Positions 5,791-48,711 of a stretch of 64,000 nucleotides of DNA are shown one piece after another (within the stretch, counting starts at the first letter, position 1; each line of letters starts with the position of its first letter). Position numbers and translations under genes: made by a program. Source of the stretch: an uncultured bacterium (GTDB taxonomy: Bacteria; Hydrothermota; Tepidihabitantia; Tepidihabitantales; DTDR01); NCBI GenBank assembly GCA_938040315.1, contig CALHQW010000006.1:1113-65112 (forward strand), in the 5' to 3' direction. The notes below the pieces were generated by a model. The model saw only the letters and a list, made by a program, of their open reading frames with translations, was not told the origin of the DNA and did no database searches.

Positions 5791-5793
5791 AAA

Positions 5794-12886: not shown

Positions 12887-15172
12887 ATGAAAAAAATACT
12901 TATATTTTTTGTAATTTTTTTATTTTCTTTTCTATTCGCAAATAATCCTTCCTTTACTCCTCCTTCCCAAATTGTTGATGACCGAATTCCAGAAGCAATT
13001 AACTTAATGGCACCTTCTTTATTAGGACCTTTAAATCTACCCCAGGAAATAAGGTGGCAAATAATTGATTCTTCACCGCCACCTGGTCGTTATTGGTGTC
13101 CGGCAACTGGTGTTGTAAGAGATACTATTTACTTTTTAGGTGGAAGGGCTAATGGTGGTTATGCCAATTCAGTTCGTTCAATTTACGCTTACGTGCCAAG
13201 TACTAATACCTGGATTACTACTGGTTTGCCAACATTATTAAGAACAAGAAGAGCAGGTGCTGGTGGTGTAATTGGTAATAAAATATATGTCGCCGGTGGA
13301 AGAGATTCGACTCATACAACCTTAAATACTTGTGAAGAATTTGATGTAGATACAAAGATAGTTACTCAAAAGGCAAATATGCCAAGTGGCAGATGGGCTT
13401 GTTGTGGTGCGGTAGCAAATGGTAAACTTTATGTTATTGGTGATGAGAATAGAACCGGAACTACTTATGAATATGACCCAGTTCAAAATACCTGGACAAC
13501 AAAAGCCAGTTTACCGGTCGGTAGAGGATGGGCAGCAGCCGCTGGTGCTGGTGGCAAAATTTATGTTTTTGGTGGCTCTGATGCTTCTGGTAATACTCTT
13601 AGTGATTGTTGGGAATATGACCCAGTTCAAAATACTTGGACCCAAAAGGCAAATATGCCGGGACCAAGAATTTATCATAGTGCTGTGAGTTATTATGATA
13701 CAGTGATTTATGTTATTGGTGGTTCAGTTACTGGTAGTTCAAATGCTGATAACCTTGTCTATAAATATCATATTGCAACTAATACTTGGACACAAGAAAC
13801 ACCAATGAATATTCCGAGAGGTTGGTTAATGACGAATGTTTGGAATGGAAAAATTTATGCTACCTATGGTTCTAATACTACCACTCCTACTTATTTAAAA
13901 GCCAATGAGGAAGGAAGTTTTATACCGCCGGCGCCAACCGATGTTGGCATTTCAGCAATAAGAAATCCATCAGCAATTGTTGACCCAAATAGTAATATTA
14001 CTCCGCTTGCGGTGGTGAAAAATTTCGGCACCTCTCCACAATCTAATATTCCTATTTATTGTTGGATTGATTCAAGTAATGTGAGAATTTATAATCAGAA
14101 TATAAACTTTCCTGGTCCACTAAATCCGGGCGAAACTGCGCAAGTTTCTTTTCCTAATTGGCTTACTGGTCCAGCAGGTACTAATTATCAAATTACTATT
14201 TTTACCGCATTAGAAAATGATACTAATAGAATAAATGATACGGTGAAAGGAATTACTACTACTTTTTTAGTAAGGGATACTTTAATTGCTCCTTTTGCTC
14301 GGGTAATACCAAATGTTGACGGTAATATTGAAGAATCTGAATGGTACGATGCGTTAAAATGGGATATTTCCGATGTTTTAAATATGCAAGGTAGTGGTGC
14401 CCGTCCTGCTGGTAGTGTTTTTCTTTATGTAAAGCACGATTCTAATAATGTCTATTGGGCACTTGACTTTGTAGCAAAAACTACACGAGATAACTATGAT
14501 CAATTTGGCTGTTATTTAGATGAAAATTACAGCCGGACATGGGCAACCGATTCTTCAGAAGGCAATCATTGGTTTGTGTGGTTAAATCAAGATACAGTTG
14601 TTTATCGTGCTTTAATTGGGCCAGGAAATCTTCCAAGTGGTTATTGGGCAAGATGGGTAAGTGGAAATGGTATTTCTCGAGCAAATACCGTTTCTGGTCA
14701 TCTTCAATTTGAGGCAGTTGTGGCAAAAGGAACACAAAAATGGAATTATAATATCAATCAGACTTCAGACACAGTTGGTTTTTACGTTTATGCCGCCGCC
14801 GCTCCGGGTACTGTGATGTGGGGAACTTGGCCAACAACAATGCCCGGTAGTAATTGGAATAACGCTGCTACTTATGGAACTTTGATCTTTAGTGATTTAC
14901 CTTCTGGTGTAAATGAAGAAAAAACAATTATCTTAAAAGAAATAAAGAAGAATAACATACTAAGAATTCCGCTTTTGGTAAAGAATGTAAGAAGTCTATC
15001 TCTCTATGATGTGAGCGGTAAGTTGATAGTAAATCTAAATAACTCTAACGAAAAAAATCTGTATTGGAACGGAAAAGATATGAATGGCAAACTTGTTCCC
15101 AATGGTATCTATTTCTTAAAGATAAAAACTGAGGAAAGCGAAATTACTACTAAGGCAATAATTCTTAAATAA
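12887..15172 (+). CDS. Secreted Kelch-repeat beta-propeller protein with CARDB-like domain(s) and a T9SS C-terminal sorting domain
   Basis: Signal peptide. Repeated GG...W...(A/G)GG...IYV.GG Kelch blades. C-terminal SLSLYDVSGKLIV...NGIYFLKIKT...KAIILK is a T9SS CTD. Confidence 0.75.
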   Translation: MKKILIFFVIFLFSFLFANNPSFTPPSQIVDDRIPEAINLMAPSLLGPLNLPQEIRWQIIDSSPPPGRYWCPATGVVRDTIYFLGGRANGGYANSVRSIYAYVPSTNTWITTGLPTLLRTRRAGAGGVIGNKIYVAGGRDSTHTTLNTCEEFDVDTKIVTQKANMPSGRWACCGAVANGKLYVIGDENRTGTTYEYDPVQNTWTTKASLPVGRGWAAAAGAGGKIYVFGGSDASGNTLSDCWEYDPVQNTWTQKANMPGPRIYHSAVSYYDTVIYVIGGSVTGSSNADNLVYKYHIATNTWTQETPMNIPRGWLMTNVWNGKIYATYGSNTTTPTYLKANEEGSFIPPAPTDVGISAIRNPSAIVDPNSNITPLAVVKNFGTSPQSNIPIYCWIDSSNVRIYNQNINFPGPLNPGETAQVSFPNWLTGPAGTNYQITIFTALENDTNRINDTVKGITTTFLVRDTLIAPFARVIPNVDGNIEESEWYDALKWDISDVLNMQGSGARPAGSVFLYVKHDSNNVYWALDFVAKTTRDNYDQFGCYLDENYSRTWATDSSEGNHWFVWLNQDTVVYRALIGPGNLPSGYWARWVSGNGISRANTVSGHLQFEAVVAKGTQKWNYNINQTSDTVGFYVYAAAAPGTVMWGTWPTTMPGSNWNNAATYGTLIFSDLPSGVNEEKTIILKEIKKNNILRIPLLVKNVRSLSLYDVSGKLIVNLNNSNEKNLYWNGKDMNGKLVPNGIYFLKIKTEESEITTKAIILK

Positions 15173-15410: not shown

Positions 15411-17123
15411 ATGAAAAAATATTTATTAATCTCTTTTTTATTTTTATCATTAATCTTTGCTAACGAAAGAGAAGTTTCTTATATTGAAAATTTCGCAATT
15501 CCCTGTCCTATTTTTAAGCCAGAGATTGTTCCTTTGCCGTCGGGTAATCAAGATTCTCCTGATTATGATACCTTGATTTACGATGAGAATCTTCGGGCAA
15601 CTGCTTGGGCTTGGAATGCTCGTGGTAATGGTTGGGGAATGAAATTTATATCTCCTGCTCCTAATATTCGTTTATATGGTGCTTTAGTAATGCTGTGGGA
15701 TACTACTTGGCCTGTTCCCGGTGGCAGAAGATTTTTAGTTAGAGTTTTAAAAGATGATGGTCCTAATGGCGCACCAGGAACCATTGTTTATGAATCAGAT
15801 ACTATTTTAGGAACTCGTGGTACTTGGAATTTTGTTTTAATTGATACACCGATCGTTAATAGTAATTTCTATATCTTTTATATTCAACCCGATTCTTATC
15901 CTCTTTGTCCGGGTTTATGTATTGACGGCAATAGCAATGCTCCGGATAATGTCTTATGGCAATATTTGGCAGGAAGTTATTCCATTGATAAAAGAAGAGG
16001 AGAATGGATGATAAGGGCAATAATTGATTGGACACCACAAAATAATAACTTGATGACAACTGTTTTTGGTGGAATGCCCTTTGATACTGTTCCAAGAATT
16101 AATCTCACTTTAAGAGCAACAGTAAGAAATATCGGAACCCAGACAATTCCCAGCGGTGTGCCGGTGAAGTTAAGAATTGTTGGTCCCCAAGGTTATATTT
16201 ATGAAGATATTGATCAGGCAACCACAACTAATTTAAATAGAAGACAATCCCAAACAATTACTTTCACTCCTGCCTGGCGTATTCCTGATACCAGCGGAAC
16301 CTATCAAATAATTGTTTGGCATGAATTTAGAGATGATGAATATCCTTTTAATGATACAATTAAAAGAAGTTTAGGAGTTGCCACTTGGATTACCTATGCT
16401 AATTGGAATAATCCTGCTTACCTTACTTGGGGAGGTCCGCAAAGGGCAACAAGATTTAATCCAGCAGATTTTCGTTTAACTTACCCCTTTGAGATTACCC
16501 GATTAAAACATCAATTCTATTGGCATCAGCAATATCCCTGGCCAGATAGCATTTTCCAATTTAGAATTTATGCTGATGATGGTCAAACTTTGTTATATGA
16601 ATCAGATACTATTCGTGCGGTTTCTTATCCATTACATATTGAACATCCGGTTGAACCACCGGTTAGAATAAATTCTGGAACATTTTATGTAGCAGTGATG
16701 CCGAGAAGTTATTCTGGTCATCCTTCAACATTAGCAGACAACCAACCCTTAGGAAAATCTTTTTATGGTAGTCCAGGTAGTTGGGTATCTTGGACATATG
16801 GTGAATATTTTAATGCGGTTTCAGTGAGGCAACTGGCAGTGATTGAAGAAGTTGATAACTATCCAGTAGAATTTGATGTTACCGAAATTACCAATCCAAA
16901 GAAAGAAATAAGGATTAAATGGCAAATTCCAAAAGGCATGTGGGTAAAAATTAGTTTAAACGATGTTGCTGGTAAGAGAGTAAAATATTTTTATAAGACT
17001 GCGGAAAATACTGCTCAAAAGGGAGTAATCACATTAGATAATAATACTTTACCAAAAGGTGTTTATCTTCTCCACTTTGAAACATCAACTTATAAGAAGA
17101 TAAGGAAAATAGTTCTTTTTTAA
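15411..17123 (+). CDS. Secreted hypothetical protein with a CARDB-like domain and a T9SS C-terminal sorting domain
   Basis: Signal peptide MKKYLLISFLFLSLIFA. C-terminal VKISLNDVAGKRV...KGVYLLHFET...IVLF is a T9SS CTD. Confidence 0.6.
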   Translation: MKKYLLISFLFLSLIFANEREVSYIENFAIPCPIFKPEIVPLPSGNQDSPDYDTLIYDENLRATAWAWNARGNGWGMKFISPAPNIRLYGALVMLWDTTWPVPGGRRFLVRVLKDDGPNGAPGTIVYESDTILGTRGTWNFVLIDTPIVNSNFYIFYIQPDSYPLCPGLCIDGNSNAPDNVLWQYLAGSYSIDKRRGEWMIRAIIDWTPQNNNLMTTVFGGMPFDTVPRINLTLRATVRNIGTQTIPSGVPVKLRIVGPQGYIYEDIDQATTTNLNRRQSQTITFTPAWRIPDTSGTYQIIVWHEFRDDEYPFNDTIKRSLGVATWITYANWNNPAYLTWGGPQRATRFNPADFRLTYPFEITRLKHQFYWHQQYPWPDSIFQFRIYADDGQTLLYESDTIRAVSYPLHIEHPVEPPVRINSGTFYVAVMPRSYSGHPSTLADNQPLGKSFYGSPGSWVSWTYGEYFNAVSVRQLAVIEEVDNYPVEFDVTEITNPKKEIRIKWQIPKGMWVKISLNDVAGKRVKYFYKTAENTAQKGVITLDNNTLPKGVYLLHFETSTYKKIRKIVLF

Positions 17124-26502: not shown

Positions 26503-27882
26503 ATGAAAGTAAATTTGGCTGGCTATAACGTAGATACAAAAATTTTAAAAAAAATACCTTCTCAGTATAAAAAGTTTTTAACACCAGAAAGTTTATCTTG
26601 TGCTTATGCGCGAATTAGTCGTTATGATTTGCCGATTGATAAATTAAGAGAAATTGCTTTAAAAGAAATTGAAAAAGCAAGAAAGACCAATCAAAGAGTT
26701 ATTTTTGAAATGGGTCATTCTTCAATTGCTGAACACAGTGTTTTTAATATTGATATTATTAATATATCCCGATTAGCCGTGGAAGAAGTTGAACATTTTC
26801 GTTTAGCCTCTTATACCGAAAAATCACAAAGATATGTAAGGTTAAAAGAAGGCTTTTTTATTCCTCAAGAAATAAAGAATACCAAAATGGAGAAAAGATA
26901 TAAAAAAATAATTAAAAAACTTTTTAATACTTATAAAGATTTCATTCAGAAAGGAATTGCGAAAGAAGATGCTCGCTATCTTTTACCTTTGGCTACTTAT
27001 ACTCAATTAGGAATGACAATAAATGCTCGTAGTTTAGAATATATGTTAAGGAAATTCTCTGCTTCACCATTATTGGAAGTTAAAAAGTTAGGTAAAAAGA
27101 TTTTTAATAAAGTGAAAAAAATTGCTCCATCCCTTTTAAGGTATTACCAGGCAACTGATTACGAATTAAAAGCCAAAGAAGAGTTAAAAAGTTTTTCTAA
27201 AAAAAATTTTCAATTTAGAAATATTGAAGAAGAAATTGAAAATGTTCGATTAGTTGCTTATTATCACAATGACTTGATTCCCAAGGCACTTTTCTATTCT
27301 TATTTTGATGGTTCTTTTCCTCAAAATTTATCTTTAAGCATTGAAGAAAAAGAAGCAATTATTAAAAAGAGTTTAGAATATTTGGAATTTTATAACGCTG
27401 TTCCTCGGGAATTTGAATTAGGATTTTTAGTATTCGAAATTGTAATAAGTGCTGCTGCCTTTGCTCAATTGAAAAGGCATCGGTTAATGACTTTAATAAG
27501 TCAATATTATAATCCAAAATTAAAATTTACTATTCCTCCTTCTATTATTGAAAAAAACTTAGAAAAAGAGTTTAAAGAAAATATAGAAGAAGCGGAAGAA
27601 TTATTCTATTCTTTGAAAGAAAAATTGGAAATAGAAGAAGCCCAATATATTTTAACAAATGCTCATCGAAAAAGGGTTTTAATCGGTTTAAATCCGAGAG
27701 AACTTTATCATATTTCGCGATTAAGAGAAGATAAAGAAGCCCAATGGGAAATTAGAGAAATTGTGCAAAAAATGAGCAATTTAGCTAAACAAAAAATGCC
27801 CGAAGTGTTTCTTTTAATTGGCGGTAAAGATAAATACCGAGAAATTTATTATTCTATTTATAATAAATATCCCCAATTTTAA
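26503..27882 (+). CDS. thyX: FAD-dependent thymidylate synthase ThyX with a tandem duplicated ThyX domain (second copy degenerate)
   Basis: First domain: HSVFNI...FRLASYTEKSQRY matches the ThyX RHR..SY.E.S.RY motif. The second domain (about aa 240-459) repeats the fold (FEIV...LKRHRLMTLISQYY ... NPRELYHISRLREDKEAQWEIREI) but lacks the first catalytic Ser. Confidence 0.8.
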   Translation: MKVNLAGYNVDTKILKKIPSQYKKFLTPESLSCAYARISRYDLPIDKLREIALKEIEKARKTNQRVIFEMGHSSIAEHSVFNIDIINISRLAVEEVEHFRLASYTEKSQRYVRLKEGFFIPQEIKNTKMEKRYKKIIKKLFNTYKDFIQKGIAKEDARYLLPLATYTQLGMTINARSLEYMLRKFSASPLLEVKKLGKKIFNKVKKIAPSLLRYYQATDYELKAKEELKSFSKKNFQFRNIEEEIENVRLVAYYHNDLIPKALFYSYFDGSFPQNLSLSIEEKEAIIKKSLEYLEFYNAVPREFELGFLVFEIVISAAAFAQLKRHRLMTLISQYYNPKLKFTIPPSIIEKNLEKEFKENIEEAEELFYSLKEKLEIEEAQYILTNAHRKRVLIGLNPRELYHISRLREDKEAQWEIREIVQKMSNLAKQKMPEVFLLIGGKDKYREIYYSIYNKYPQF

Positions 27883-29077
27883 AATTGACAAATTTTTTAT
27901 TTTTAAATATAATATAAAAGTGAAAGTAAAATTAGGGAAAAAATTTTTAGTTAGTTATTTTATCTTTATTTTTCTACTTTTGGCGATAATCTTTTTTATT
28001 GTTTCTTCTTTTCTTTTTCGAAAATTAGAAGAAGCGATAACTTTGCGGTCACGAATTTTTGCTAAATATATGTCCAAAACTCAAGAAGAAAATTGGGAAG
28101 GCGGTTCTTACGAATTAGATATAATTTTTGAGGAAGTGATAAAAAAAATTGATTTTCCAGTAATTGTTACTGATGATAAAGGTGAAATCGTTGCTTATCG
28201 GAATGTTGGTAAAAATCCAACAAAGGAAAGATTGAGAAGGAAAATAGAAAGTTTAAAAAAAGAGAGACCACCGATTCCGATTTTGGTTAATCTTAGAGAT
28301 ACTACTAAATTTCTCGGTGAAATTTATTATGGTTTATCTCCCTCAGCAAAATTTGTTCGACTTTATCCTTATTATTTAATTTTAATTTTATTGGTATTTA
28401 TTTTTTTAGGAATTTGGGCAATTTTTGTTTATAAAAAAAGGGAGGAGGAAAAGTTGTGGACTTTTTTAGCTAAAGAAACTGCCCATCAAATGGCGACACC
28501 ACTTTCTTCTCTAATGGGTTGGCTTTTGACATTAAAAGATAAGATTGAAAAAGAATACTATGAAGAGATATCTTTAGATATAAAGAAAATGGAAACTGTT
28601 TTAGAAAGATTTTCGCGAATAGGATTACCGCCCAAATTGGAAAAAATACCGATAAGAAAAATTATTGAAAATGTTTGCCAACATTTCCAAAAAAGAATGC
28701 CCTTAAATATTGAATTAATTTTGAATTTAAAAACTAACCCTCTTTTGCCTTTAGATGAAGTTCTCTTCGGTTGGAGTTTGGAAAATTTGTTAAAAAATAG
28801 TGTTGACGCTATTGGTAATAACCCAGGAAGAATAGAAATAAAAGAAATTCCCAACGGTGCTTATTATGAAATTCAAATAATCGATAGTGGTGAAGGGATA
28901 AATAAAAAAATTAAAAATAAAATTTTTAAGCCAGGCATAACAACCAAAAAATATGGTTGGGGAATAGGATTATCTTTGACGAAAAGGATTATTGAGGAAT
29001 ATCATAAAGGGAAGTTAATATTAAAGGAATCAAAAAAAGGAAAAACTATTTTTTCTATTCTTTTAAGAAAAAAATGA
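27818..29077 (+). CDS. Sensor histidine kinase (PorY-like partner of the adjacent PorX-like regulator). Start ambiguous: ATG 27818 overlaps thyX by 65 nt, with an alternative in-frame GTG at 27920.
   Basis: N-terminal TM segment(s), an H-box ETAHQMATPLSSL, and HATPase_c motifs (NLLKNSVDAI, IIDSGEGI, GWGIGLSL). Confidence 0.8.
   Translation: MAVKINTEKFIILFIINIPNFKIDKFFIFKYNIKVKVKLGKKFLVSYFIFIFLLLAIIFFIVSSFLFRKLEEAITLRSRIFAKYMSKTQEENWEGGSYELDIIFEEVIKKIDFPVIVTDDKGEIVAYRNVGKNPTKERLRRKIESLKKERPPIPILVNLRDTTKFLGEIYYGLSPSAKFVRLYPYYLILILLVFIFLGIWAIFVYKKREEEKLWTFLAKETAHQMATPLSSLMGWLLTLKDKIEKEYYEEISLDIKKMETVLERFSRIGLPPKLEKIPIRKIIENVCQHFQKRMPLNIELILNLKTNPLLPLDEVLFGWSLENLLKNSVDAIGNNPGRIEIKEIPNGAYYEIQIIDSGEGINKKIKNKIFKPGITTKKYGWGIGLSLTKRIIEEYHKGKLILKESKKGKTIFSILLRKK
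27884..27913 (+). promoter_or_regulatory. Sigma70 consensus promoter TTGACA -18- TATAAT inside the thyX 3' end. The -10 ends 6 nt before an in-frame GTG (27920) of the sensor kinase gene.
   Basis: Read from the sequence. Confidence 0.45.
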
Positions 29078-30585
29078 AAATTCTTTGGATTGATGACGAA
29101 ATCGAACTTTTGAAACCCTTTATTTATTTTCTCAAAGAAAAAGGGTATGAAGTAAGAGCGGTGAGTAATGGAGTTGATGGTCTGAATAAAATAAAGGAAG
29201 AAAATTTTGATTTAGTTTTGGTAGATGAGATGATGCCTGGATTAGATGGGTTAGAAGTTGCTCAAAAAATAAAGAATTATGACCCAAGTATTTTTGTTGT
29301 AATGGTGACCAAAGTAAGCGATGAGGCTTTTATTGATGAAGTTTATGCTAATCTAATTGATGACTTTATTTTGAAGCCCTTAAATTCAATGCAAATATTA
29401 GCGGTAATTAAAAGATTATTAGAAAAGAAAGAAATTTTTAAAGAGAGTTTAGTAAGAGAGTATTTAAGAATTCTTTCAAGTACAAAAAATTTTGAAAGAA
29501 TAGAGGAATGGTATGATTTTTATCAACAATTGATAAAATGGAGAGAGTATATTGTTCGTTTTTCCCTTGATGATTTAAGAGAAAGTTATGAAGATATTTT
29601 AAGAGAAGCAAATGAAAATTTTGCTCAATTTATTGAAGAGAATTATATTTATTGGTTGAAAAATAATTCTGGTCCAATTTTCTCTCACCAGTTTTTTGAA
29701 AAGTTTATTAAACCCAATCTAGATAAATTACCTCTTTATTGGATAATTTTTGATTCGTTAAGACTTGACCAAGGAGTTATTATTTATAATATTTTAAAAG
29801 AACATTTCTTAATAAAACAAAATTTTTACTGCTCCATTCTTCCTTCAGCAACTCCTTATTCTCGTAATGCTTTATTGAGTGGTTTAACACCCGAAAAAAT
29901 TTTTAAATATTACCCTAACTATTGGGTTTTTGAAAATACTGGACAAAATCGATATGAAGAAGAACTTTTCCAAAAACTTTTGATGAGAGAAAAAATTTCA
30001 TTGAAGTATATTTATTTAAAGGTTTTGAAAATAGAAGATTTGATAGAAAAGTTAGATTATCTTTTAAATTCCGATGCTGGGATAATTGTAATTATTGTCA
30101 ATTTTTTAGATTTTCTTATTCATTCTGCTAAAGAGGGTGTGTTTATCAAAGAAATTGCGGAGAACGAAGATTCTTTATTGGAATTTACGAAAATCTGGTT
30201 TAATTCTTCTTGGATATTTCAATTTTTGAAAAAACTAAAACAAAAGAAAAGGAAAATTATTATCACCTCTGATCATGGATTTATTAAAGTTAAAAAACCA
30301 ACAGTTATCCATGGTGGAAAAGAGATTTCTCTTAATCTTCGGTATAAATCAGGCGGTGGATTAAGGGTTGATAAGAAAGCGGCTTGGCTTTTGGCTCCAA
30401 AAGATTTAGAACTGCCACAAGAATTTTTAGGCGAAGAGTATGCAATTTGTAAAAGTGATTATTATTTTATTTATCCAACAAAACCAAGAGAATATGAAAA
30501 AACTTATAAATTTACTTATCAGCATGGCGGAATTTCTATGCAAGAAATGATTTTGCCTGTGGGAATATTATCTCCTCTTGATTAA
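29074..30585 (+). CDS. Response regulator with CheY-like receiver plus C-terminal PglZ/alkaline-phosphatase-superfamily domain (PorX-like)
   Basis: REC domain (phospho-acceptor LVLVDEMMPGLDG). PglZ-like motifs WIIFDSLRLD, TPYSRNALLSG, ITSDHGF. This domain architecture is that of the Porphyromonas gingivalis T9SS regulator PorX. ATGA overlap with the kinase gene. Confidence 0.7.
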   Translation: MKILWIDDEIELLKPFIYFLKEKGYEVRAVSNGVDGLNKIKEENFDLVLVDEMMPGLDGLEVAQKIKNYDPSIFVVMVTKVSDEAFIDEVYANLIDDFILKPLNSMQILAVIKRLLEKKEIFKESLVREYLRILSSTKNFERIEEWYDFYQQLIKWREYIVRFSLDDLRESYEDILREANENFAQFIEENYIYWLKNNSGPIFSHQFFEKFIKPNLDKLPLYWIIFDSLRLDQGVIIYNILKEHFLIKQNFYCSILPSATPYSRNALLSGLTPEKIFKYYPNYWVFENTGQNRYEEELFQKLLMREKISLKYIYLKVLKIEDLIEKLDYLLNSDAGIIVIIVNFLDFLIHSAKEGVFIKEIAENEDSLLEFTKIWFNSSWIFQFLKKLKQKKRKIIITSDHGFIKVKKPTVIHGGKEISLNLRYKSGGGLRVDKKAAWLLAPKDLELPQEFLGEEYAICKSDYYFIYPTKPREYEKTYKFTYQHGGISMQEMILPVGILSPLD

Positions 30586-30613
30586 TTTTAAAATTTATTT
30601 ATAATAATAATCA

Positions 30614-31120
30614 ATGTCAGAATTCACATTTTTAGAGATTTTAAAAAAAGAACATTTTTTGATTGAAAGGGCTTTAAGAGTAATGAATATATTTATAATC
30701 CGAGAACAATTTTTGGAAAAAGAATTTACTTTGCTTTATCGTTTAATTAAAAATTTTGTTGAAGAAAACCATTGTGCAAAAGAAGAAAGAGTTTTATTTC
30801 CACTAATAAGGGAATATGAGATAGATGCACAATTAGTTATGGCCAATGAAAAAGAAAAGAGAAAGGAGATTATTGAAAATTTAGCAACTGGATTAAGAGA
30901 GCTTGATAAGGAAAAATTTTTTATGGGCTTGCAAAATTTTATAGAAATTTTTGCTCGCCATATTTTTAAAGAGGAAGGCCTTATTTTTCCTGCATGTGAG
31001 GCCCTTTTGTCCTCTGATATAAATGAAAAAATTATTGAAGATTTTAAAGAATATGAAAAAAATGAAGAAAATTATGAGTACTTTCTAAAAATTGTAGAAG
31101 ATTTAGAAAAACTCATATAA
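30614..31120 (+). CDS. Hemerythrin-like (HHE cation-binding) domain protein
   Basis: Repeated H..(K)EE..LFP motifs (HCAKEERVLFPLI, HIFKEEGLIFPAC). Its stop lies 3 nt before the uvrA start. Confidence 0.65.
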   Translation: MSEFTFLEILKKEHFLIERALRVMNIFIIREQFLEKEFTLLYRLIKNFVEENHCAKEERVLFPLIREYEIDAQLVMANEKEKRKEIIENLATGLRELDKEKFFMGLQNFIEIFARHIFKEEGLIFPACEALLSSDINEKIIEDFKEYEKNEENYEYFLKIVEDLEKLI

Positions 31121-31123
31121 TAA

Positions 31124-33961
31124 ATGACTCAAAACAATTATATTTTTATTAAAGGAGCAAGAGAACATAATTTAAAAAATCTTACTTTAAAAATTCCTCG
31201 AAATAAAATGGTAGTTATCACTGGAATTTCTGGTTCAGGAAAGTCTTCTTTGGCTTTTGATACTATTTATGCCGAAGGGCAAAGAAGATATATTGAATCT
31301 CTTTCTTCTTATGCTCGACAGTTTTTGGGAGTATTAGAAAAACCGGATGTTGATCAGATTGAAGGTCTTTCGCCAGCGATTGCTATTGAACAACGAACCG
31401 CAGCCAAAAATCCTCGTTCCACTGTTGGCACCGTTACCGAAATTTATGATTATTTAAGAGTTCTTTTTGCTCGAATTGGTACTCCCTTCTGTCCTTACTG
31501 TAATAAAGAAATTGCTCACCAAACCTTAGACCAAATAATTGATCAAATAACTCTTTATCCTCCAAATACAAAGTTAATAATATTAGCACCAGTAATAAGG
31601 GGAAGAAAGGGAGAATATCAGAACCTTTTAGAAAAAATTAAGAAAAAGGGATTTTTGAGAGTAAGGGTAGATGGGAAAATTTCTGAAATTTCTGAAGTTA
31701 AAAATTTAGAAAGATATAAAAAACATAACATTGAAATCCTTATTGACCGTTTAATTTTAACTAAAGAAAATCAGAAAAGATTAGTTGAATCAGTAGAATT
31801 AGCATTAAAAGAGGGACAAGGGTTATGTGTAGTAATTTTTGATGAAAAAGAGGAAAAAATTTTTTCTGAAAAATTTGCCTGTGTAGACTGTGGTTTTTCC
31901 TATGAAGAAATTTCCCCCAGACTATTTTCTTTTAATTCTCCTTACGGAGCTTGTCCGAGTTGTCATGGATTAGGAACAAAAATGGAAATTGATCCAGAAA
32001 GATTGATTGTTGACCCTAATCTCTCAATTAATGAAGGAGTAATTGAAGTATGGGGTGAACCAAAAGGTAGGTGGTTTACTTCTCTTTTGAAGGCATTAGC
32101 AAAAAATTATAATTTCTCTTTAAACACTCCTTGGAAAAAATTACCGAAGGAAGTAAAAAAAATAATTCTTTATGGTACTAATGAAGAAATTCTTGTGGAA
32201 CATGAAAGATGGGACGGAACTCGTTATCATTTTTATGAAGAATTTGAAGGTGTGATTCCCCATTTAATGCGGATTTATCAAACAACCGAATCAGAAAGTA
32301 CTCGAGAATGGATCGAGCGGTATATGTCAATTTTACCTTGCCCAGAATGTTTGGGAGCTCGGCTTAAAAAAGAAGCCTTATCAATTAAAATTGCTGGTTA
32401 TTCTATTTATGATGTTTGTAAGTTATCTATTAAAGAATGTTATCTTTTCTTTGATAATCTGAAAATGAAGGAACAAGAAAGAAAAATTGCTGGTGAGTTG
32501 ATTAATGAAATTAAAAAACGGTTAAATTTTTTAATTGAAGTTGGTGTTGATTATTTAACTTTGGAAAGAAGAACAGATACTTTAGGTGGCGGTGAAGAAC
32601 AAAGGGTAAGATTAGCCACACAAATTGGTTCAGGTTTGGTCGGTGTTACTTATATTTTAGATGAGCCAAGTATTGGTTTACATATGAGGGATAATCATAA
32701 ATTGATTCAAACATTATTAAAGTTGAGAGATTTAGGAAATACAGTAATTGTGATTGAGCACGATCGCGACACAATTTTAAGTAGTGATTATGTGATTGAT
32801 TTAGGACCGGGTGCTGGTGAAAGAGGTGGTTATGTAGTTGCGATGGGTACACCTTCCGAAATAATGAGAAATCCGAATTCTTTAACCGGAGCTTATTTAA
32901 TAGGTAAAAAAGAAATTCCTTTACCAAAAAAGAGAAGAATCCATCAGGGAAAATTTTTGGTGGTAAAAGGTTGTAGTGAAAATAATTTAAAAAATGTTGA
33001 TATTTCCATACCTTTAGGACTATTTGTCTGTCTTACCGGAGTGTCTGGTTCAGGTAAAAGTACCTTCATGAATGATATTCTTTATAAAGCGTTGGCAGAA
33101 AAGTTTTATGGTTCGAAAGAGAAACCAGGAAAATTTAGAGAGATTATTGGTTGGGAAGAGATTGATAAAGTAATTAATATTGATCAATCACCAATTGGTC
33201 GAACTCCTCGTTCTAATCCGGCAACATATACTAATGTTTTTACACCGATAAGAGAACTTTTTGCTCAGACAAAAGAAGCCAAAATTCGGGGTTATCCTCC
33301 TGGGAGATTTTCTTTTAATGTTCGAGGGGGACGATGTGAAGATTGTGGTGGCGATGGAATAAAAAAAATTGAAATGCATTTTTTGCCAGATGTTTATGTG
33401 ACTTGTGAAGTTTGTAAGGGAAAGAGATATAATCGGGAAACTTTAGAAATAAAATATAAAGGGAAAAATATTTATGAAGTTTTAGAGATGACTGTTAATG
33501 AAGCATTAGAGTTTTTTTATAATATACCACCAATCCGAAGAAAATTGGAGATGTTAAGAGATGTTGGATTGGGTTATATAAAATTAGGACAACCGGCAAC
33601 AACTTTATCGGGTGGCGAAGCGCAAAGAGTAAAATTGGCAAGGGAATTATCCAAAATTGGTACGGGAAGAACTTTGTATCTTTTAGATGAGCCAACTACT
33701 GGTTTGCATTTTGAGGATATTCGGCTCCTTTTGATTGTCCTTAATCGCTTAGTAGATAAAGGAAATACGGTGGTTGTCATTGAACATAACTTAGAAGTGA
33801 TAAAGTGTGCTGACTGGATAATTGATTTAGGACCAGAAGGAGGTGAAAAAGGTGGATATGTTGTTGCTTGTGGTCCTCCCGAAGAGATTGCCAGATGCGA
33901 AAAATCTTATACTGGAAAATTTCTGAGAGAAGTATTAAGAAGGCACGGAGTCAAAATTTAG
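31124..33961 (+). CDS. uvrA: Excinuclease ABC subunit A
   Basis: Two ABC ATPase modules ([32 protein letters not shown] twice) and zinc-finger Cys clusters. 945 aa. Confidence 0.95.
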
Positions 33962-42080: not shown

Positions 42081-42989
42081 TTATTCTATAAAAACAGGAA
42101 TTTGGTAAAGATGATAAATAAATTTTTCTTTAAAATAAAAAAGGGTTTGAGGAGATAAGATTTCAATTGTTAAATAATTTATTCCCTTTTTATTTAGTTT
42201 TATTTTTAAATAGAAAATATTGTTATTTCTTTTAAATAATACTCTTTGGTTTGAATAATGAAGAAAGACAAGATAATCTTTTAAACTATCTTTTTTAATT
42301 TTTATCTCAATTGTAATTGAATCATTAATGGAAAAATTGGGGAGTTCTTCCAAAGAGAAGAAATTTTTAAAGAAACCTGAATCAATAGTAATTGAAAATT
42401 TATTTTTTAGATTAATAAAATCAATTTCGGGAGCGGTATCTAAATTTGGGAAGAAAGAGTTTGTAGGTGAGATTTTATAAAATTGATATTTGCCAGATTG
42501 TTTTTTAAAAATAATTCTTTTTTTTGCTCGAATAGGATAAATTTTTTCATATTCTTTTATACCATAATTAATTTTTTTTATGCTTTCTAATACCCCGATA
42601 TCATTAAAAAATATCTGCCAAAGAGAGTCGTATTGAATAATGGCAATTGTATGACGGTTAGAATCTAAATGGGTAATTTCACAAAAGGTGTCTTTATTTT
42701 CAATAAAAAATCTTAATGAATCAAAAGAAGAGGTATCGTAACTAAGGCGATAAAAACTAAGGAGATGAGCAATTTTCTCAAAAACTTTTTGATTTTGGTA
42801 AGTAGTATCCGAAGGAAGAAGAAAAGAAGAATAGGAAAAATCAATCGGTCTTTTTTCTAAAAAAGAATAAATTGAAATCATTTCTTTATTCTCTTTTAAA
42901 ATTTGATTAACCAGTTCTTTATCATTTTCAAAAGTATCTTTCTTTTGACAGAAGATAAAAAGGATTATAAAAAATAATATTTTTCTCAT
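42081..42989 (-). CDS. Hypothetical lipoprotein
   Basis: Signal peptide with Cys (FIILFIFC) and no recognisable domain. Confidence 0.4.
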   Translation of the reverse strand: MRKILFFIILFIFCQKKDTFENDKELVNQILKENKEMISIYSFLEKRPIDFSYSSFLLPSDTTYQNQKVFEKIAHLLSFYRLSYDTSSFDSLRFFIENKDTFCEITHLDSNRHTIAIIQYDSLWQIFFNDIGVLESIKKINYGIKEYEKIYPIRAKKRIIFKKQSGKYQFYKISPTNSFFPNLDTAPEIDFINLKNKFSITIDSGFFKNFFSLEELPNFSINDSITIEIKIKKDSLKDYLVFLHYSNQRVLFKRNNNIFYLKIKLNKKGINYLTIEILSPQTLFYFKEKFIYHLYQIPVFIE

Positions 42990-43043: not shown

Positions 43044-44789
43044 TTAGTGGTTAATTATCAACTTATATCTTTCAGTTAAAGTGTTGGCCTTTATTGTTAA
43101 GAAGTAAATTCCGTTTCTTAATTCTTTTGAAATTCGGAACTGGTAATTGTGATTACCTTTTGAGAGATTTTTGTCTAATAAGTTCATAACTATTCTACCA
43201 TTAATATCGGTCAAAAAGATATTTACCTTTGTCTCTTTTTCTAAACTAATTGAGAGATAAGCACGATTTCTAATTGGATTAGGATAAACTTTTAAATTAA
43301 ACAACTTATTACCTTTTGTTTCTGCAATACCGGTTTCATCTAAATATCGTCTGGGAACTTGGTGAACAACAAAAGCACAAGTAGCTAAAGAATGTTCACC
43401 TTGGACATAGAAACCAGCAATTGGGTCAATTAAATAGGTAATCCAGCACATATCATCAACAATTGGAGCCAAGAAAGGAAATCTTTTTGAAGTTTGATCA
43501 GGTTCAGTAATTCTTTTTGGTGGCAACCAAGTTAAACCACCATCAGTAGAAGCAGTTCCCCAAATATCGGCTCTTAGACGTTGGGTTTGAGGTTCATAAT
43601 TTACTGGGTCAAATTGTTCCCAAACAACATAAAGATTTCCGTTCTGTAAGTTTTGACCAATAGATGGACGACCAGCAAAAATAGCATTATAACCAACGGT
43701 TGCCGCTAAAGTATCAGGCATAATTCGGCAGATTCTTGTTAATTCAGGATTTCTTCCCGGAACATAATGCCACATTTCTACAGGAATTATTCTACCAGTA
43801 TCTCTTATATTAGGCGTGAAGCAAAGGACGAAGTTTGGTCTATCTTCTCGATCAAAGAAACCACCAACCGAAGGTAACCAAAGTTCAGGTAAAGTTTCGC
43901 TTCCGGGTGTAAAGATTTCAGGAAATGGGAAAGGAATCACATCGCTCCAAGTTTCGCCACCATCAGTAGAAATTCTATAAGCACCGCTATCCGGTCCTGT
44001 GCCATCCCATTCGGTCCAGTAAATCACTACTTTATTACTTATTTTAGAAGCAAAAATTCCTTGGCTATTACCTTGGGGAGCGATTGGTTGTCCAGGTTCA
44101 GGAGCGATTAATACTGGTTCTTCAGGGGTTGGCCAATCTCTCATTCTAATATAAAAAATTCTGTCCCGTGCTTGTCCAGGATCGTCTTCCACAGCAGCAA
44201 CATGGACCCAGCCATTATTTGTAATAGCAATTGGTGGCCAAAGATAGCCTTCTTGACAATCGGCATAATCAAAAATTCCTTGTCCAGGAGCAATATCTTT
44301 TCCAATTCTTGGAATAAAACGTTGAGTTCCTGCTACATGTCCAACAATAAATTCATTTCCTTCCATGGGGTTAACATCAAGATTTCCAAAGCCAGCACGA
44401 GCATTTAATGCATCAATTCCATCTTGACCAAATGCCCAAGACTGGGTAGCGCGGTCATAAAAATTATATCTCATATTTCTATCAGGAAAAGGACTTGCTT
44501 GAAGAGAAGTTATTCCCGTTACGTGAACACCTCTTTGTGGATCATTGTAAATTCTTTGCCATCCATGAGAATTAAATTGCCAGTCATAAGTGGAAAAGAA
44601 CACCGTATCTACTCTGCCAATAGGTTGCCAAGAAGAAAAAGAATTTCTTTCTTTAATTATTTTTGTTTCCTTTATTTTAGGAAGGTCGGCTTTAAGTTCG
44701 GGCGGAAGGGTTTTTATTGGGATAAGATATTCTTTGGGAAGAGCAAAAATAATTAATAAAGGAATAAAAAAGATTACTAATTTACGCAT
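43044..44789 (-). CDS. Secreted BNR/Asp-box repeat (sialidase-like beta-propeller) protein with a T9SS C-terminal sorting domain
   Basis: Signal peptide. Asp-boxes STDGGETWS and STDGGLTW. C-terminal NIFLTDINGRIV...NGIYFLTIKA...LIINH is a T9SS CTD. Confidence 0.65.
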   Translation of the reverse strand: MRKLVIFFIPLLIIFALPKEYLIPIKTLPPELKADLPKIKETKIIKERNSFSSWQPIGRVDTVFFSTYDWQFNSHGWQRIYNDPQRGVHVTGITSLQASPFPDRNMRYNFYDRATQSWAFGQDGIDALNARAGFGNLDVNPMEGNEFIVGHVAGTQRFIPRIGKDIAPGQGIFDYADCQEGYLWPPIAITNNGWVHVAAVEDDPGQARDRIFYIRMRDWPTPEEPVLIAPEPGQPIAPQGNSQGIFASKISNKVVIYWTEWDGTGPDSGAYRISTDGGETWSDVIPFPFPEIFTPGSETLPELWLPSVGGFFDREDRPNFVLCFTPNIRDTGRIIPVEMWHYVPGRNPELTRICRIMPDTLAATVGYNAIFAGRPSIGQNLQNGNLYVVWEQFDPVNYEPQTQRLRADIWGTASTDGGLTWLPPKRITEPDQTSKRFPFLAPIVDDMCWITYLIDPIAGFYVQGEHSLATCAFVVHQVPRRYLDETGIAETKGNKLFNLKVYPNPIRNRAYLSISLEKETKVNIFLTDINGRIVMNLLDKNLSKGNHNYQFRISKELRNGIYFLTIKANTLTERYKLIINH

Positions 44790-44804: not shown

Positions 44805-46637
44805 CTAATTTATTATTATTTTTTTCTTATATATTTTATTTCCATCATCAAAAAGGCAGAAATAAGTGCCTTTTCTACCTTTAGTATTCCAGGTTAATTT
44901 ATAATTTCCTTTTTCTTTTCTTTTATTTTCTAAAATTTCCACCATTTTGCCACTAATGTCAAAAATGGCAATTGTTATTGATGAAGATTGAGATAACGAG
45001 TAAGTAATATTTACCTTTTTACTTGTTGGATTAGGGAAAATAGAAAAATTAGTTTTTGGAGAATATTTATTATTCTCTTGTGCAATACCAACTTCAACAA
45101 GCAATGTACAAGGAACTCGGAAATAAAGAACTGGATTATTAGTGACTACTCCTTCATTTTGTGGAACACCACCGGCATCTTTGTCATTAATATAAGTAAT
45201 ATGCAGATAACCACCAACAGCAAAAGGCGCTAAGGAAAAATAATCGTCGTCTTCACACATTCCTGGAGAAGCACCCGGACTTGGAGAATTTGTAAGATTT
45301 AATACTTCGCCAATTCGTCCTTTTACTCCCCAGGTTCTTCCGCCATCAGTAGAAACTGCTGCATATAATTCACCATTTATTCTTCTTCCTTGAGAAATGT
45401 CAGTAGTATCTAAATTACCGACCCAAACACAATAAAGATTACCATAATTATCAATTGCTAATTGTGGTCGGTCAGCCGGTCTTCGCCAAGCATCGTTCTG
45501 AACATTAGGATAAGGCGAATACCACCAAGAATCTCCAACTACTTGTAAATGTCCGATACCAGATACCAAAGTTATTCCGGTTTGTTCGCTCCAATGTCTA
45601 ATTCTTGAAAAACCAGGATAAGTCGCTGGTCCTCGGCTACCAACCATTGATAGGATTTCTGTCCATACTACATGTAAATTGCCATTCAAATCGTAAATGG
45701 CATCACAATCTGCATAGGCAAATTCGTGGGGTAAGGTATCGGTTGGATATTGATAATTTGTAATTTGTCTTGGCGGTTGCCAAGTAGCACCTCGGTCATA
45801 GGATTCTCTTATCCAAACATTTTGTAAAACTTGTGAATGTCTTTCTGGTAAATTAGAGGTATAAGCAACGACAACTTTGTCTCCATCAGGTTGAGCATAT
45901 ATATCACCAGAAAGGCATGCCATTACCGTGTCATTCATTATTGGCATCCAGTTACTAAAAGTATTGCCACCATCGGTGGAACGAGAGTAATAGAAATCTT
46001 CAGAAGCACCAGCAGTTGGTGGTCTTCCATATCCTAACACATGAATAATTCCATTATTGCCAATAGTTCCGTGAGGCCAGATAATTTCATTTCCATAAGG
46101 AGAAAGATTTACATCCGGCTCAATGGGATCGCCAAATATTCCAGTTTGAGGAGCAATTTCAATTGTTAAAGCCGAATAAAATACACCTTCTCTTGAATGA
46201 TGGAAAAAGCAACAAGCCTTTCCATCAGGAAACATTCCAAAAGTTACATAACCTGCCCGATACATACCACTTGCTTGGACACCCATTCCTAATTGGACAG
46301 TATCATCAAAATAAGCATTATAATAACAATAACGATTCGGATAAGAAGGATTTGAATCAGGAGAGTGCATCCAATCAAATCCCCAAGTATTATTGGCAAA
46401 TTCTATTCTTGAGCCAAGGGTGCCGTTAGATTGATAATCAATAAAAGTTCGAGAAAGAAGAATTCCAGGAGAAGTGGTAAAGGTAGGAGAAATGTTAACT
46501 GGTAAAGAGATTTTTTCTAAACCAGTAGAAAGGGGAAGAGGAGAATAAAGTTGTTGATGTTTAGGACTCAAAAATTCACTTTTTGGTAAAGAAAATAAAA
46601 AAGAGATTAAAAAGATAAAAATACTCATTTTTTTCAT
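44805..46637 (-). CDS. Secreted BNR/Asp-box repeat protein with a T9SS C-terminal sorting domain (paralogue of the downstream gene)
   Basis: Asp-boxes SRSTDGGNTFS, SYDRGATWQ, STDGGRTWG. C-terminal ITIAIFDISGKMV...GTYFCLFDD...KIIIN is a T9SS CTD. Confidence 0.65.
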   Translation of the reverse strand: MKKMSIFIFLISFLFSLPKSEFLSPKHQQLYSPLPLSTGLEKISLPVNISPTFTTSPGILLSRTFIDYQSNGTLGSRIEFANNTWGFDWMHSPDSNPSYPNRYCYYNAYFDDTVQLGMGVQASGMYRAGYVTFGMFPDGKACCFFHHSREGVFYSALTIEIAPQTGIFGDPIEPDVNLSPYGNEIIWPHGTIGNNGIIHVLGYGRPPTAGASEDFYYSRSTDGGNTFSNWMPIMNDTVMACLSGDIYAQPDGDKVVVAYTSNLPERHSQVLQNVWIRESYDRGATWQPPRQITNYQYPTDTLPHEFAYADCDAIYDLNGNLHVVWTEILSMVGSRGPATYPGFSRIRHWSEQTGITLVSGIGHLQVVGDSWWYSPYPNVQNDAWRRPADRPQLAIDNYGNLYCVWVGNLDTTDISQGRRINGELYAAVSTDGGRTWGVKGRIGEVLNLTNSPSPGASPGMCEDDDYFSLAPFAVGGYLHITYINDKDAGGVPQNEGVVTNNPVLYFRVPCTLLVEVGIAQENNKYSPKTNFSIFPNPTSKKVNITYSLSQSSSITIAIFDISGKMVEILENKRKEKGNYKLTWNTKGRKGTYFCLFDDGNKIYKKKIIIN

Positions 46638-46649
46638 ATTTTCCTCCTT

Positions 46650-47267
46650 CTATCTAAGTCTAAATTTATAAGGAATACTTACCCAAACTCTTACCGGCAT
46701 ATCTCTTTGTTTTGCCGGTGTAAATTTTGCTTGTCGAGCAGCATCCATTGCTGCTTTATCAAGTTCCGGATTTCCAGAAGATTTTAAAATTCTCACATCA
46801 GCAACACTTCCGTCTATATCTACCAATGCTTCTACCACTACATCTCCTTCATGACCTAATTGGCGAGCAATTTCTGGATATACCGGTTTTGGCAAATAGA
46901 CTTCTTTTGGTTTTATTTCTACTTTCCAAAAAGGAACAATTGGTATTTCTGTCTCTTCAGTTTTTTTATATATCTCAGTAAATTCAGTTTTTCCTATGGT
47001 AGTGACATCTTCAGCCTCTTCACCAGTTTGTGCTTCGGAAACCACTGCGATTTTTGGTCTTTCTACCGGTGGTGGTTCAGCGATTTGTTCTAACTCAGGA
47101 GGTAACTGTTCTAAAACAGTACCAATTTCTTTTTTCGGAATATAAGGCCGATAAAAAAATTCTTTGGGGAAAACTATAAAAACTAATAAGACAAAGGCCA
47201 AAGCAATTATTAAACCAATTCGAAACATTATTGAATAATATTCATCCCATTCAAAAACTTTATTCAT
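46650..47267 (-). CDS. tonB: Energy transducer TonB (TonB C-terminal domain protein)
   Basis: N-terminal TM anchor, Pro/Glu-rich linker, and a C-terminal YPEIARQLGHEGDVVVEALVDIDGSVADVRILKSSGNPELDKAA TonB_C domain. Confidence 0.7.
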   Translation of the reverse strand: MNKVFEWDEYYSIMFRIGLIIALAFVLLVFIVFPKEFFYRPYIPKKEIGTVLEQLPPELEQIAEPPPVERPKIAVVSEAQTGEEAEDVTTIGKTEFTEIYKKTEETEIPIVPFWKVEIKPKEVYLPKPVYPEIARQLGHEGDVVVEALVDIDGSVADVRILKSSGNPELDKAAMDAARQAKFTPAKQRDMPVRVWVSIPYKFRLR

Positions 47268-47269
47268 GA

Positions 47270-47686
47270 TTAACCTCCAATTTTTTTATATTCCGTAGCA
47301 AAAACAACTTTAAAAGCCTGGGCTTCTTTTAAGGCTTCTAATAGGTCATTTATTCTTCCATAATCCACACCGCTATCCGCCATGATTTCTGCTACTAATT
47401 CTGGATTATCAGCGATTTTTAAAAGCATCACATTGGTAACCCCAGCAAGGTCTAATACATTATCATCAATAGTGATTTTTCCTGTTTTATCTACCCAGAT
47501 ATGAACTACATTCTTTCTTTTTATCAATCTTTCCGTTGCCTCTGCTTGTGGTAGATCTACTTTTAATCCTGTTTCCGTTCTTAAAACCGTAGTGAGCATA
47601 AAGAAGATAATCAAAAGAAAAGCAATATCACCAGTAGAAGCACTGGGTATCTCGGGAGTTTCTCTTTTTATTAAAAACTTTCTCAT
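47270..47686 (-). CDS. exbD: Biopolymer transport protein ExbD/TolR
   Basis: N-terminal TM segment (DIAFLLIIFFM) plus an ExbD periplasmic domain. Confidence 0.75.
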   Translation of the reverse strand: MRKFLIKRETPEIPSASTGDIAFLLIIFFMLTTVLRTETGLKVDLPQAEATERLIKRKNVVHIWVDKTGKITIDDNVLDLAGVTNVMLLKIADNPELVAEIMADSGVDYGRINDLLEALKEAQAFKVVFATEYKKIGG

Positions 47687-47689
47687 ATT

Positions 47690-48100
47690 TTATTCCTCTT
47701 TTACCGGCGTTAAACTAATCTTTTCAGCCTTTGCCAATTTTAATTGATCAAAAGCATCAATCATAATTTTATAAGGAGCCTTTCGGGAAACTTTTAAAGC
47801 AACAACTAATTCGGGATTTTTGTTTAATGCTTCCTGCACAATTGGTTTAATTTCGGGAATAGTTACTTTTTGTTCCCCAATCAATACTTCACCGTAAGGA
47901 TTTACGGTTACTACTAAAATATTCTCTTTTTTTACCTTTACCTCGGCTCCTTTTGGTGGCAAAACAATTTTCAAACCTTTTTCTCGAGAGAAAATAGAAG
48001 TTACCATAAAGAAAATAATTAGAAGAAAAGCAATATCCCCGGTAGAAGCAGTGGGGATTGAAATTTTTTGTTCTTTTTTTCTTTTAAACATAATAAACAT
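47690..48100 (-). CDS. exbD: Biopolymer transport protein ExbD/TolR (second copy)
   Basis: A paralogue of the adjacent gene with the same TM motif. Confidence 0.75.
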   Translation of the reverse strand: MFIMFKRKKEQKISIPTASTGDIAFLLIIFFMVTSIFSREKGLKIVLPPKGAEVKVKKENILVVTVNPYGEVLIGEQKVTIPEIKPIVQEALNKNPELVVALKVSRKAPYKIMIDAFDQLKLAKAEKISLTPVKEE

Positions 48101-48102
48101 AA

Positions 48103-48711
48103 TTATTGTCGCTTTGTTAAATATTCAATTAAAGTGGCTGCTGAAGTTTCTAAATCTCGAGTGTAACTATTAATTTTCATTTGATAAAGAATATGAATTA
48201 TTGCTAATGGAGCAGCAATCATTAAGCCCCATTTAGTCGTGATTAATGCTTCCGAAATACCTGATGCTACAACTGCTGGTTCAACTTCACCTACTGCTGC
48301 CACTGCCGCAAACGCCCGAATCATACCAGTAACAGTTCCTAAAAAACCAAAGAAAGGAGCAACCATCGTTAATCCACCCATTAGATTCATTCCTCGGTCA
48401 AGAAAGCCAAGTTCACTAACTCCGGCTCTTGTTACCGCTTCTTCCATTGCACTTTTACCTTCTTTCGCTTTTTCTAATGCTGCTAAAAGAACTCGAGCTA
48501 CCGGACTTTTTGTCTTTTGACAAAGTTTAACTCCGCTTTCCACTCCCTCTTTTTCAATTATTGAAATGAGGTTTTGAGTAAATTTTTTAGCATTTAATGA
48601 GGCAACGATAAAAAGGGTAATAAACCGTTCAATAATTAAGGCAATACCTAAAATAGCACAGGCTAATAAAAACCACATTATGCCACCGCCTTTAATGAAT
48701 TCCTGTATCAT
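48103..48711 (-). CDS. exbB: MotA/TolQ/ExbB proton-channel protein
   Basis: Three TM segments and the conserved region GLLGTVTGMIRAF. Confidence 0.8.
   Translation of the reverse strand: MIQEFIKGGGIMWFLLACAILGIALIIERFITLFIVASLNAKKFTQNLISIIEKEGVESGVKLCQKTKSPVARVLLAALEKAKEGKSAMEEAVTRAGVSELGFLDRGMNLMGGLTMVAPFFGFLGTVTGMIRAFAAVAAVGEVEPAVVASGISEALITTKWGLMIAAPLAIIHILYQMKINSYTRDLETSAATLIEYLTKRQ

Follow-up and report, generated by a model that had tools for sequence, protein, structure and literature searches.

A linked porY-porX gene pair in a bacterium of candidate division WOR-3

The DNA analysed here is a 64,000-nucleotide stretch of contig CALHQW010000006.1 (assembly GCA_938040315.1), called the window below, which carries on its + strand a sensor histidine kinase gene immediately followed by a response regulator gene. 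The two genes were identified as porY and porX. They very probably form a translationally coupled two-gene operon, orthologous to the PorXY system of Porphyromonas, and the hemerythrin and uvrA genes found downstream most likely belong to a separate unit. In Porphyromonas gingivalis, PorX is indispensable for type IX secretion and virulence, and efforts are under way to use it as a drug target. The region, whose GC content is 28-34%, contains five co-directional open reading frames (ORFs) arranged head to tail on the + strand, namely thyX, the kinase, the regulator, hemerythrin and uvrA. All close homologues, of the kinase and of the regulator alike, come from metagenome-assembled genomes of candidate division WOR-3. 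Judged from these matches, the host is a low-GC bacterium of WOR-3, in agreement with the initial annotation, which had proposed a non-Bacteroidetes lineage.

Identity of the regulator and of the kinase

The regulator gene (29074..30585, + strand) codes for a protein of 503 residues composed of a receiver domain (REC), a helical linker and a PglZ phosphodiesterase-type domain. Pfam recognized Response_reg with 80.9 bits as well as PglZ, which scored 61.7 bits against a gathering score of 25, and the protein reached 503.1 bits against the NCBIfam equivalog NF052313 (cut-off 300), named 'T9SS response regulator signal transducer PorX' (T9SS, type IX secretion system), the match covering model positions 2-511 of 513. 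These scores, including that of the PglZ motifs against their Pfam model, bear out the PorX-like regulator with CheY-receiver and PglZ domains that had been described initially. The qualification of this architecture as rare was not upheld, thousands of homologues having been found. The regulator could be aligned end to end with the P. gingivalis PorX structure 7PV7 (E 1.4e-93) and, equally strongly, with the Flavobacterium johnsoniae PorX structures 8TED and 8P6F (E about 2e-92 for the 8P6F/8TED series), which present the same domain order. The F. johnsoniae protein has been investigated as an orphan regulator whose target is the GldL/PorL motor, and no adjacent kinase has been described for it (PMC10951265), whereas the porX gene of the window has one.

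In P. gingivalis PorX, the phospho-acceptor is D58 and the metal/catalytic residues are D239, T272, D361, H365, D415, H416 and H500 (PMC9757075). After residue mapping according to Schmitz et al. (PMC9757075), D58 corresponds to D51 of the window protein and the seven other residues to D227, T260, D346, H350, D400, H401 and H484, respectively. D51 and all seven metal/catalytic residues did not vary among 26 aligned WOR-3 homologues, and the receiver residues D7/D8, T79 and K101 were also conserved. The window protein has in common with P. gingivalis PorX the three-part architecture (REC, helical bundle and PglZ), the phospho-accepting aspartate and the seven metal/catalytic residues, and can be assigned as a genuine PorX orthologue. 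The PglZ proteins of BREX systems, e.g. the BREX-3 PglZ described by NF033449, also possess the PglZ/alkaline-phosphatase fold and the metal ligands of the window PorX. These phage defence proteins are nevertheless longer than 600 residues and devoid of a receiver domain, unlike the window PorX, which fails the NF033449 model with only 91 bits against a cut-off of 250.

The kinase gene (27920..29077, + strand) codes for a protein of 385 residues, identified with Pfam, by BLASTP against PorY and with a sensor-only profile. Two transmembrane (TM) cores, at about residues 10-28 and 152-170, enclose a periplasmic sensor of roughly 120 residues and are followed by the H-box KETAHQMATPLSSLMGW, which contains the phospho-acceptor H189, and by HATPase_c (residues 287-383). 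Of the two kinase domains to be looked for, HATPase_c was confirmed by Pfam (54.6 bits) whereas HisKA stayed at 19.4 bits and did not reach its gathering score of 26.9. NCBIfam holds no PorY model and returned generic kinase matches only for the window kinase; P. gingivalis PorY itself matches only generic AtoS/ZraS models, below their cut-offs, and the N-terminal half of the window kinase taken alone gave no meaningful match in this collection. A search of the PDB retrieved no PorY structure, the best kinase matches being at most 64 bits.

The sequence of P. gingivalis PorY was obtained by scanning a metagenome collection with the porY-specific part of a cloning primer (Vincent et al. supplement, PMC5005315). 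The scan yielded five P. gingivalis contigs, and PorY was located at L086:1201-2385 as a protein of 395 residues, with residue 173 at the AERRSEQNR primer site and H193 in KETAHQ. The published protein has 395 residues, TM segments at 14-36 and 149-173 and the phospho-acceptor H193 (PMC5005315). In BLASTP, the window kinase was 33% identical to the recovered PorY over 378 of its 385 residues (E 5e-65), and characterised non-PorY kinases scored at most 87 bits. The alignment spans TM1, the periplasmic loop, TM2, the H-box (KETAHQMATPLSSLMGW in the window kinase and KETAHQLGTPISSLMAW in PorY) and the ATPase domain. The N-terminal 178 residues were sufficient to match PorY (E 1e-11), and a profile of the sensor region, made from about 118 WOR-3 homologues, matched PorY residues 14-181 with an E of 4e-15. 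At E <= 1e-3, a sensor-only profile of the same kind brought up just 307 representative clusters among 1.84 billion representative proteins, and these were mostly proteins of 350-430 residues with the domain at about residues 30-160. Among the 142 listed matches which resembled either kinase, 56 were closer to P. gingivalis PorY than to the window kinase; for the best listed matches, the identity to P. gingivalis PorY was 44-45% from end to end.

The P. gingivalis protein and the window kinase thus have a two-TM topology, a homologous periplasmic sensor and the H-box in common, with similar length (395 and 385 residues), position of TM2 (149-173 and about 152-170) and position of the phospho-acceptor (H193 and H189), for an identity of only about 33%. 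The window kinase also fits the general description of a PorY protein, which is about 390 residues long, has a periplasmic loop of roughly 115 residues between two TM helices and carries no further sensor domain on the cytoplasmic side. A structure model of the sensor loop, of moderate confidence (predicted local distance difference test, pLDDT, 67.7), weakly resembles extracytoplasmic PAS/PDC sensor domains. On these comparisons, the WOR-3 kinases and the PorY proteins of Bacteroidota constitute a single family, whose defining feature is the sensor domain, and the description of the window kinase as PorY-like stands. That it should instead be a generic histidine kinase lying beside porX, PorY-like only through the shared kinase core, which would make the linkage uninformative on the PorX-PorY pairing of Bacteroidota, is highly improbable: the lack of a PorY model in NCBIfam, with both proteins matching generic AtoS/ZraS/KinD models below cut-offs, the sub-threshold HisKA score and the GenBank name of the homologues ('HAMP domain-containing sensor histidine kinase') are compatible with such a kinase, but the alignment with PorY continues through both TM segments and the loop between them, the sensor region is recognized on its own by BLASTP as well as by the profile, and the sensor-only profile leads to proteins 44-45% identical to P. 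gingivalis PorY. As a separate observation, a protein of 2216 residues (P0268) gave 13 separate matches to the PorY sensor profile and appears to consist of tandem copies of the sensor domain.

The mechanical longest ORF of the kinase begins at TTG 27818 and runs 65 nt into thyX. This start was rejected, a promoter-like site being located inside the extension. An ATG stands at the position of GTG 27920 in three related genomes, and on a near-identical contig the kinase was called independently as a product of 385 residues. Because of the ATG of the relatives, of this gene call and of the promoter-like site at 27885-27913, which matches the consensus at 12 of 12 positions, the start of the kinase is almost certainly GTG 27920. 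The gene that had been annotated from 27818 was therefore kept and its start was moved.

Linkage of porY and porX in WOR-3, compared with Bacteroidota

The stop codon of porY and the start codon of porX overlap by 4 nt in an ATGA sequence (29074-29077). The linkage was surveyed in one genome per GTDB species, which provided 80 loci labelled WOR-3, Stahlbacteria or TA06, 76 of them with enough upstream DNA. By tblastn, a full-length kinase orthologue (38-89% identity) was detected directly upstream of porX in 68 of these 76 loci, i.e. in about 90%. The kinase and porX genes overlap by 4 nt in 37 loci and by 1 nt in 5, and they are separated by 0-8 nt in 10 others. After clustering of the neighbouring genes, the kinase was the sole family conserved phylum-wide, the next best being present in at most 23 loci. 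With members of one kinase family beside porX in so many species loci, the adjacency is, on these counts, far beyond chance. The genetic support for a PorXY pairing outside Bacteroidetes, first proposed from the window, is thus not a one-off. Concerning the four-gene order porY-porX-hemerythrin-uvrA, it is the porY-porX half which proved to be conserved in related genomes, the hemerythrin-uvrA half being confined to the five closest relatives (see below). In 23 WOR-3 species (L043 and 22 others), tig, clpP, clpX and a gene for a protein of roughly 247 residues without Pfam match precede porY-porX co-directionally, about 1-6 kb upstream of porX.

In P. gingivalis, about 1000 genes lie between porX and porY (PMC5005315), and unlinked pairs have been described in Tannerella forsythia (Tanf_12330/Tanf_13050) and F. 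johnsoniae (Fjoh_2906/Fjoh_1592) (PMC5445135) as well as in Cytophaga hutchinsonii (CHU_1040/CHU_0334) (PMC11611037). The initial contrast between the unlinked genes of P. gingivalis and the overlapping genes of the window is therefore correct, and it extends to the three other species: in the window, which belongs to the phylum WOR-3, the pair overlaps by 4 nt and would share a promoter. Literature searches yielded no description of a common porX-porY operon, whatever the organism. The arrangement of the window is that of canonical bicistronic two-component operons of the phoRB or envZ-ompR type, in which adjacent kinase and regulator genes with overlapping stop and start codons imply translational coupling and cognate pairing. 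It differs from them by the position of the kinase, which comes first, and by the output domain, which is an enzyme and not a DNA-binding domain. As read from these sequences, PorXY is a known system, new in WOR-3 and in a canonical operon arrangement.

Given that the operon is conserved and that its stop and start codons overlap, we infer a phosphotransfer from PorY to PorX in WOR-3. A possible course of events can be drawn from earlier work on Porphyromonas and Flavobacterium (PMC4800418, PMC5005315, PMC9757075, PMC10951265). A periplasmic cue would act on the PAS/PDC-like sensor loop of PorY, which would autophosphorylate on H189 and pass the phosphoryl group to D51 of PorX. PorX would then dimerise, which would activate the oligonucleotide phosphodiesterase of its PglZ domain as well as its protein contacts, and contacts with the secretion motor and/or a sigma factor of the extracytoplasmic function (ECF) type (PorL and SigP in P. 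gingivalis) would tune type IX secretion.

Type IX secretion and nucleotide signalling

Four ORFs of the window passed the Pfam model Por_Secre_tail, which marks the C-terminal domain (CTD) of T9SS cargo: 12887-15172, 15411-17123 and, on the minus strand, 43044-44789 and 44805-46637. A fifth candidate, 9095-10303, reached 17.3 bits, below the gathering score of 27, so that four of the five cargo genes initially counted in the window were retained. Since four CTD cargo genes are present, the genome evidently uses type IX secretion, as far as can be predicted from the window. Nothing linking WOR-3 with T9SS was found in the literature. The two minus-strand cargo genes, which code for BNR-repeat proteins, belong to a string extending from 48711 down to 43044, in which exbB (48103-48711), two copies of exbD (47690-48100 and 47270-47686) and tonB (46650-47267) are tightly packed and precede the two BNR-repeat genes (44805-46637, then 43044-44789). 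An ORF of 302 residues without Pfam match (42081-42989) follows this string.

No T9SS structural gene was found next to porYX in the 80 loci; the neighbours seen instead were tig-clpP-clpX, GGDEF, YkuD and LutABC/Ldh_2 genes and a gene for an SBP_bac_5-TonB_C protein. This would fit another explanation, in which the WOR-3 PorYX is primarily a nucleotide-signalling module and not a T9SS regulator, PorX acting as an oligonucleotide phosphodiesterase, e.g. in the turnover of pGpG/cyclic di-GMP (c-di-GMP) or of nanoRNA. Such a role is also compatible with the full conservation of the catalytic site of PorX, with the reported binding of pGpG and cleavage of oligonucleotides by PorX (PMC9757075), and with the presence of a co-directional gene for a GGDEF diguanylate cyclase, with an intact motif, directly upstream of porY in about 18-19 WOR-3 species loci. 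On the other hand, the window has thyX and not a GGDEF gene upstream of porY, the genome encodes T9SS cargo, and PorX co-occurs with T9SS across the Fibrobacteres-Chlorobi-Bacteroidetes (FCB) group (PMC9757075). The two roles are not mutually exclusive. A primary role in nucleotide signalling is in our opinion unlikely.

The GGDEF gene is found beside porYX in a subset of WOR-3 only, not in the window (loci L049, L050, L052-L057, L060, L064, L069-L075 and L078). It takes up some 2 kb directly upstream of porY and codes for a protein of 610-830 residues, in some cases of GAF-GGDEF type. In these loci, the three-gene unit GGDEF-porY-porX suggests that a diguanylate cyclase is tied to the oligonucleotide phosphodiesterase PorX.

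Transcription units and meaning of the linkage

The porY-porX pair is preceded by a sigma-70-type promoter-like site, TTGACA-17-TATAAT (27885..27913, + strand), the only one between 26300 and 34300 to match the consensus at 12 of 12 positions. Only 6 nt separate its -10 hexamer from the GTG, so the porY mRNA would be leaderless or nearly so. The site is kept in L005, L007 and L008, and the sequence farther upstream is not. A second promoter-like site, TTGATT-16-TATAAT (30578..30605, + strand; 10/12), covers the last codons of porX and the spacer which follows, with 8 nt left between its -10 and the ATG of the hemerythrin gene. This site is invariant in five related genomes, in which the porX-hemerythrin spacer is almost invariant and is better conserved than the wobble positions on either side.

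The significance of these sites was evaluated over the whole window by comparing first genes, defined by a gap of at least 25 nt before them (n=25), with internal genes (n=29). Sigma-70-like sites with at least 10 matches out of 12 were present upstream of 13 of the 25 first genes versus none of the 29 internal genes. The distance between the -10 and the start codon shows a bimodal distribution: it is either 6-8 nt without Shine-Dalgarno sequence (leaderless type) or 24-35 nt, mostly with a Shine-Dalgarno sequence of the GGAGG type. Leaderless-type promoters were assigned to six genes (9095, 27920, 30614, 52950-53621 on the minus strand, 53678 and 57761), two of which have GTG as start codon.

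The hemerythrin gene (30614..31120, + strand) follows porX after 28 nt (30586-30613), and uvrA (31124..33961, + strand) begins 3 nt after the hemerythrin stop codon; both gaps, like the 4-nt overlap of kinase and regulator, are exactly those claimed initially. The first gene codes for a protein of 168 residues with a Hemerythrin HHE domain (PF01814, 43.4 bits against a gathering score of 25.3). A direct reading of its sequence for the pattern H / HxxxE / H / HxxxE revealed only H14, H53xxxE57 and H116xxxE120, with no histidine between 57 and 116. In a word-indexed search, it had only 11 homologues, all at least 78% identical. The identity of uvrA, coding for the 945-residue subunit A of excinuclease ABC, is unambiguous (NCBIfam NF001503, 1531.9 bits against a cut-off of 1147), all its Pfam domains being strong. 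The 3' end of uvrA is overlapped by a convergent ymdB-like gene.

The presence of both genes after porX is restricted to five species-level genomes, the closest relatives (L005, L006, L007 (= L001/L002) and L008), whose PorX proteins are 83-90% identical. At 55% PorX identity, a convergent transglutaminase-like gene follows porX, and hemerythrin or uvrA was found beside porX in none of the other 76 species loci. The hemerythrin gene thus most likely opens a separate hemerythrin-uvrA unit, with its own leaderless-type promoter in the end of porX, and the position of this pair beside porYX has the look of an accident of dense gene packing, peculiar to the clade. The initial annotation had united the four genes in one unit, and a single operon of porY, porX, hemerythrin and uvrA, perhaps with thyX, would couple the regulation of type IX secretion with O2/NO or iron sensing and with nucleotide excision repair. 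The co-directional genes separated by gaps of at most 37 nt, the lack of a terminator-like hairpin between them and the repetition of the four-gene order in five related species-level genomes are in agreement with such an operon. Against it, the order is confined to these close relatives and replaced by the transglutaminase-like gene at greater distance, none of the other flanks contains uvrA or hemerythrin, few close homologues of the hemerythrin protein are detectable, and an invariant site of a type which in the window stands before first genes and not before internal ones lies 8 nt before the hemerythrin ATG. A single operon is for these reasons improbable. An internal promoter and a gene order not conserved elsewhere had been named initially as findings that would refute the claim, and both were encountered for its hemerythrin-uvrA part. 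Because the promoter in the spacer is conserved, its class is confined to first genes and the gene order is limited to close relatives, two units, porY-porX and hemerythrin-uvrA, are most likely, and they are the most economical reading of the region.

The upstream neighbour of porY, thyX (26503..27882, + strand; Pfam/NCBIfam), lies outside the porYX unit. It is found at this place only in L005 and L008, a divergent LTD gene being there in L001/L007. Its product of 459 residues has two Thy1 matches and therefore a tandem-domain organization, in comparison with the usual single-domain ThyX of roughly 220-250 residues. A scan with Rfam revealed no RNA element in the region and two tRNAs only in the whole window. 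Elsewhere in the window, on the + strand at 3046-8658, an AddB-like gene (PD-(D/E)XK, ADDB_N) and an AddA/UvrD-like helicase-nuclease gene are arranged in tandem; a UvrD-PDDEXK gene similar to that of the window is convergent to porX in 9 other WOR-3 loci, e.g. L021.

Several points weigh against the interpretation of porY-porX as a coupled PorXY operon distinct from its neighbours, in addition to the lack of T9SS structural genes beside it. In 8 WOR-3 loci (L066, L067, L068, L076, L077, L079, L081 and L084) porX is an orphan, no PorY-type kinase being found within the flank. The orthology of the kinases is based on one-directional comparisons, and the link of PorXY with T9SS in WOR-3 is drawn by analogy from Bacteroidota. 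A leaderless GTG start, as postulated for porY, is unusual, and the relatives have ATG there. The promoters are consensus matches, backed by conservation and by the contrast of first and internal genes, and not mapped transcription starts. Finally, no terminator-like site or hairpin was found between thyX, porYX and hemerythrin-uvrA, and read-through transcripts across all genes are therefore possible. The neighbours of the orphan porX genes are either YkuD L,D-transpeptidase and RuvB genes or the lactate-utilisation genes LutABC (CCG/LUD) with Ldh_2.

The supposed tie of the T9SS regulators to hemerythrin and DNA repair fails, and new biology should not be built on a grouping which is most likely incidental. 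The porY-porX linkage is of modest importance. Two recent structural papers doubt that PorY is the kinase, or the only kinase, of PorX, the genes being unlinked and the mutant phenotypes different (PMC9757075, PMC11320123). A conserved and coupled porY-porX operon outside Bacteroidota provides independent evolutionary support for the cognate pairing, and the linked WOR-3 pairs are a resource for the analysis of co-variation and specificity. The T9SS regulatory module would at the same time be extended to WOR-3, for which no earlier discussion was found in the literature. Tentatively, and with some doubt, the operonic porY-porX of WOR-3 might be the ancestral state and the orphan genes of Bacteroidota the derived one, the GGDEF-extended subclade suggesting that the PglZ domain of PorX takes part in a c-di-GMP/pGpG circuit gating secretion. 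If the operon is indeed ancestral, hundreds of natural pairs could train an analysis of specificity residues, and this could settle whether P. gingivalis PorY is the true cognate kinase of PorX.

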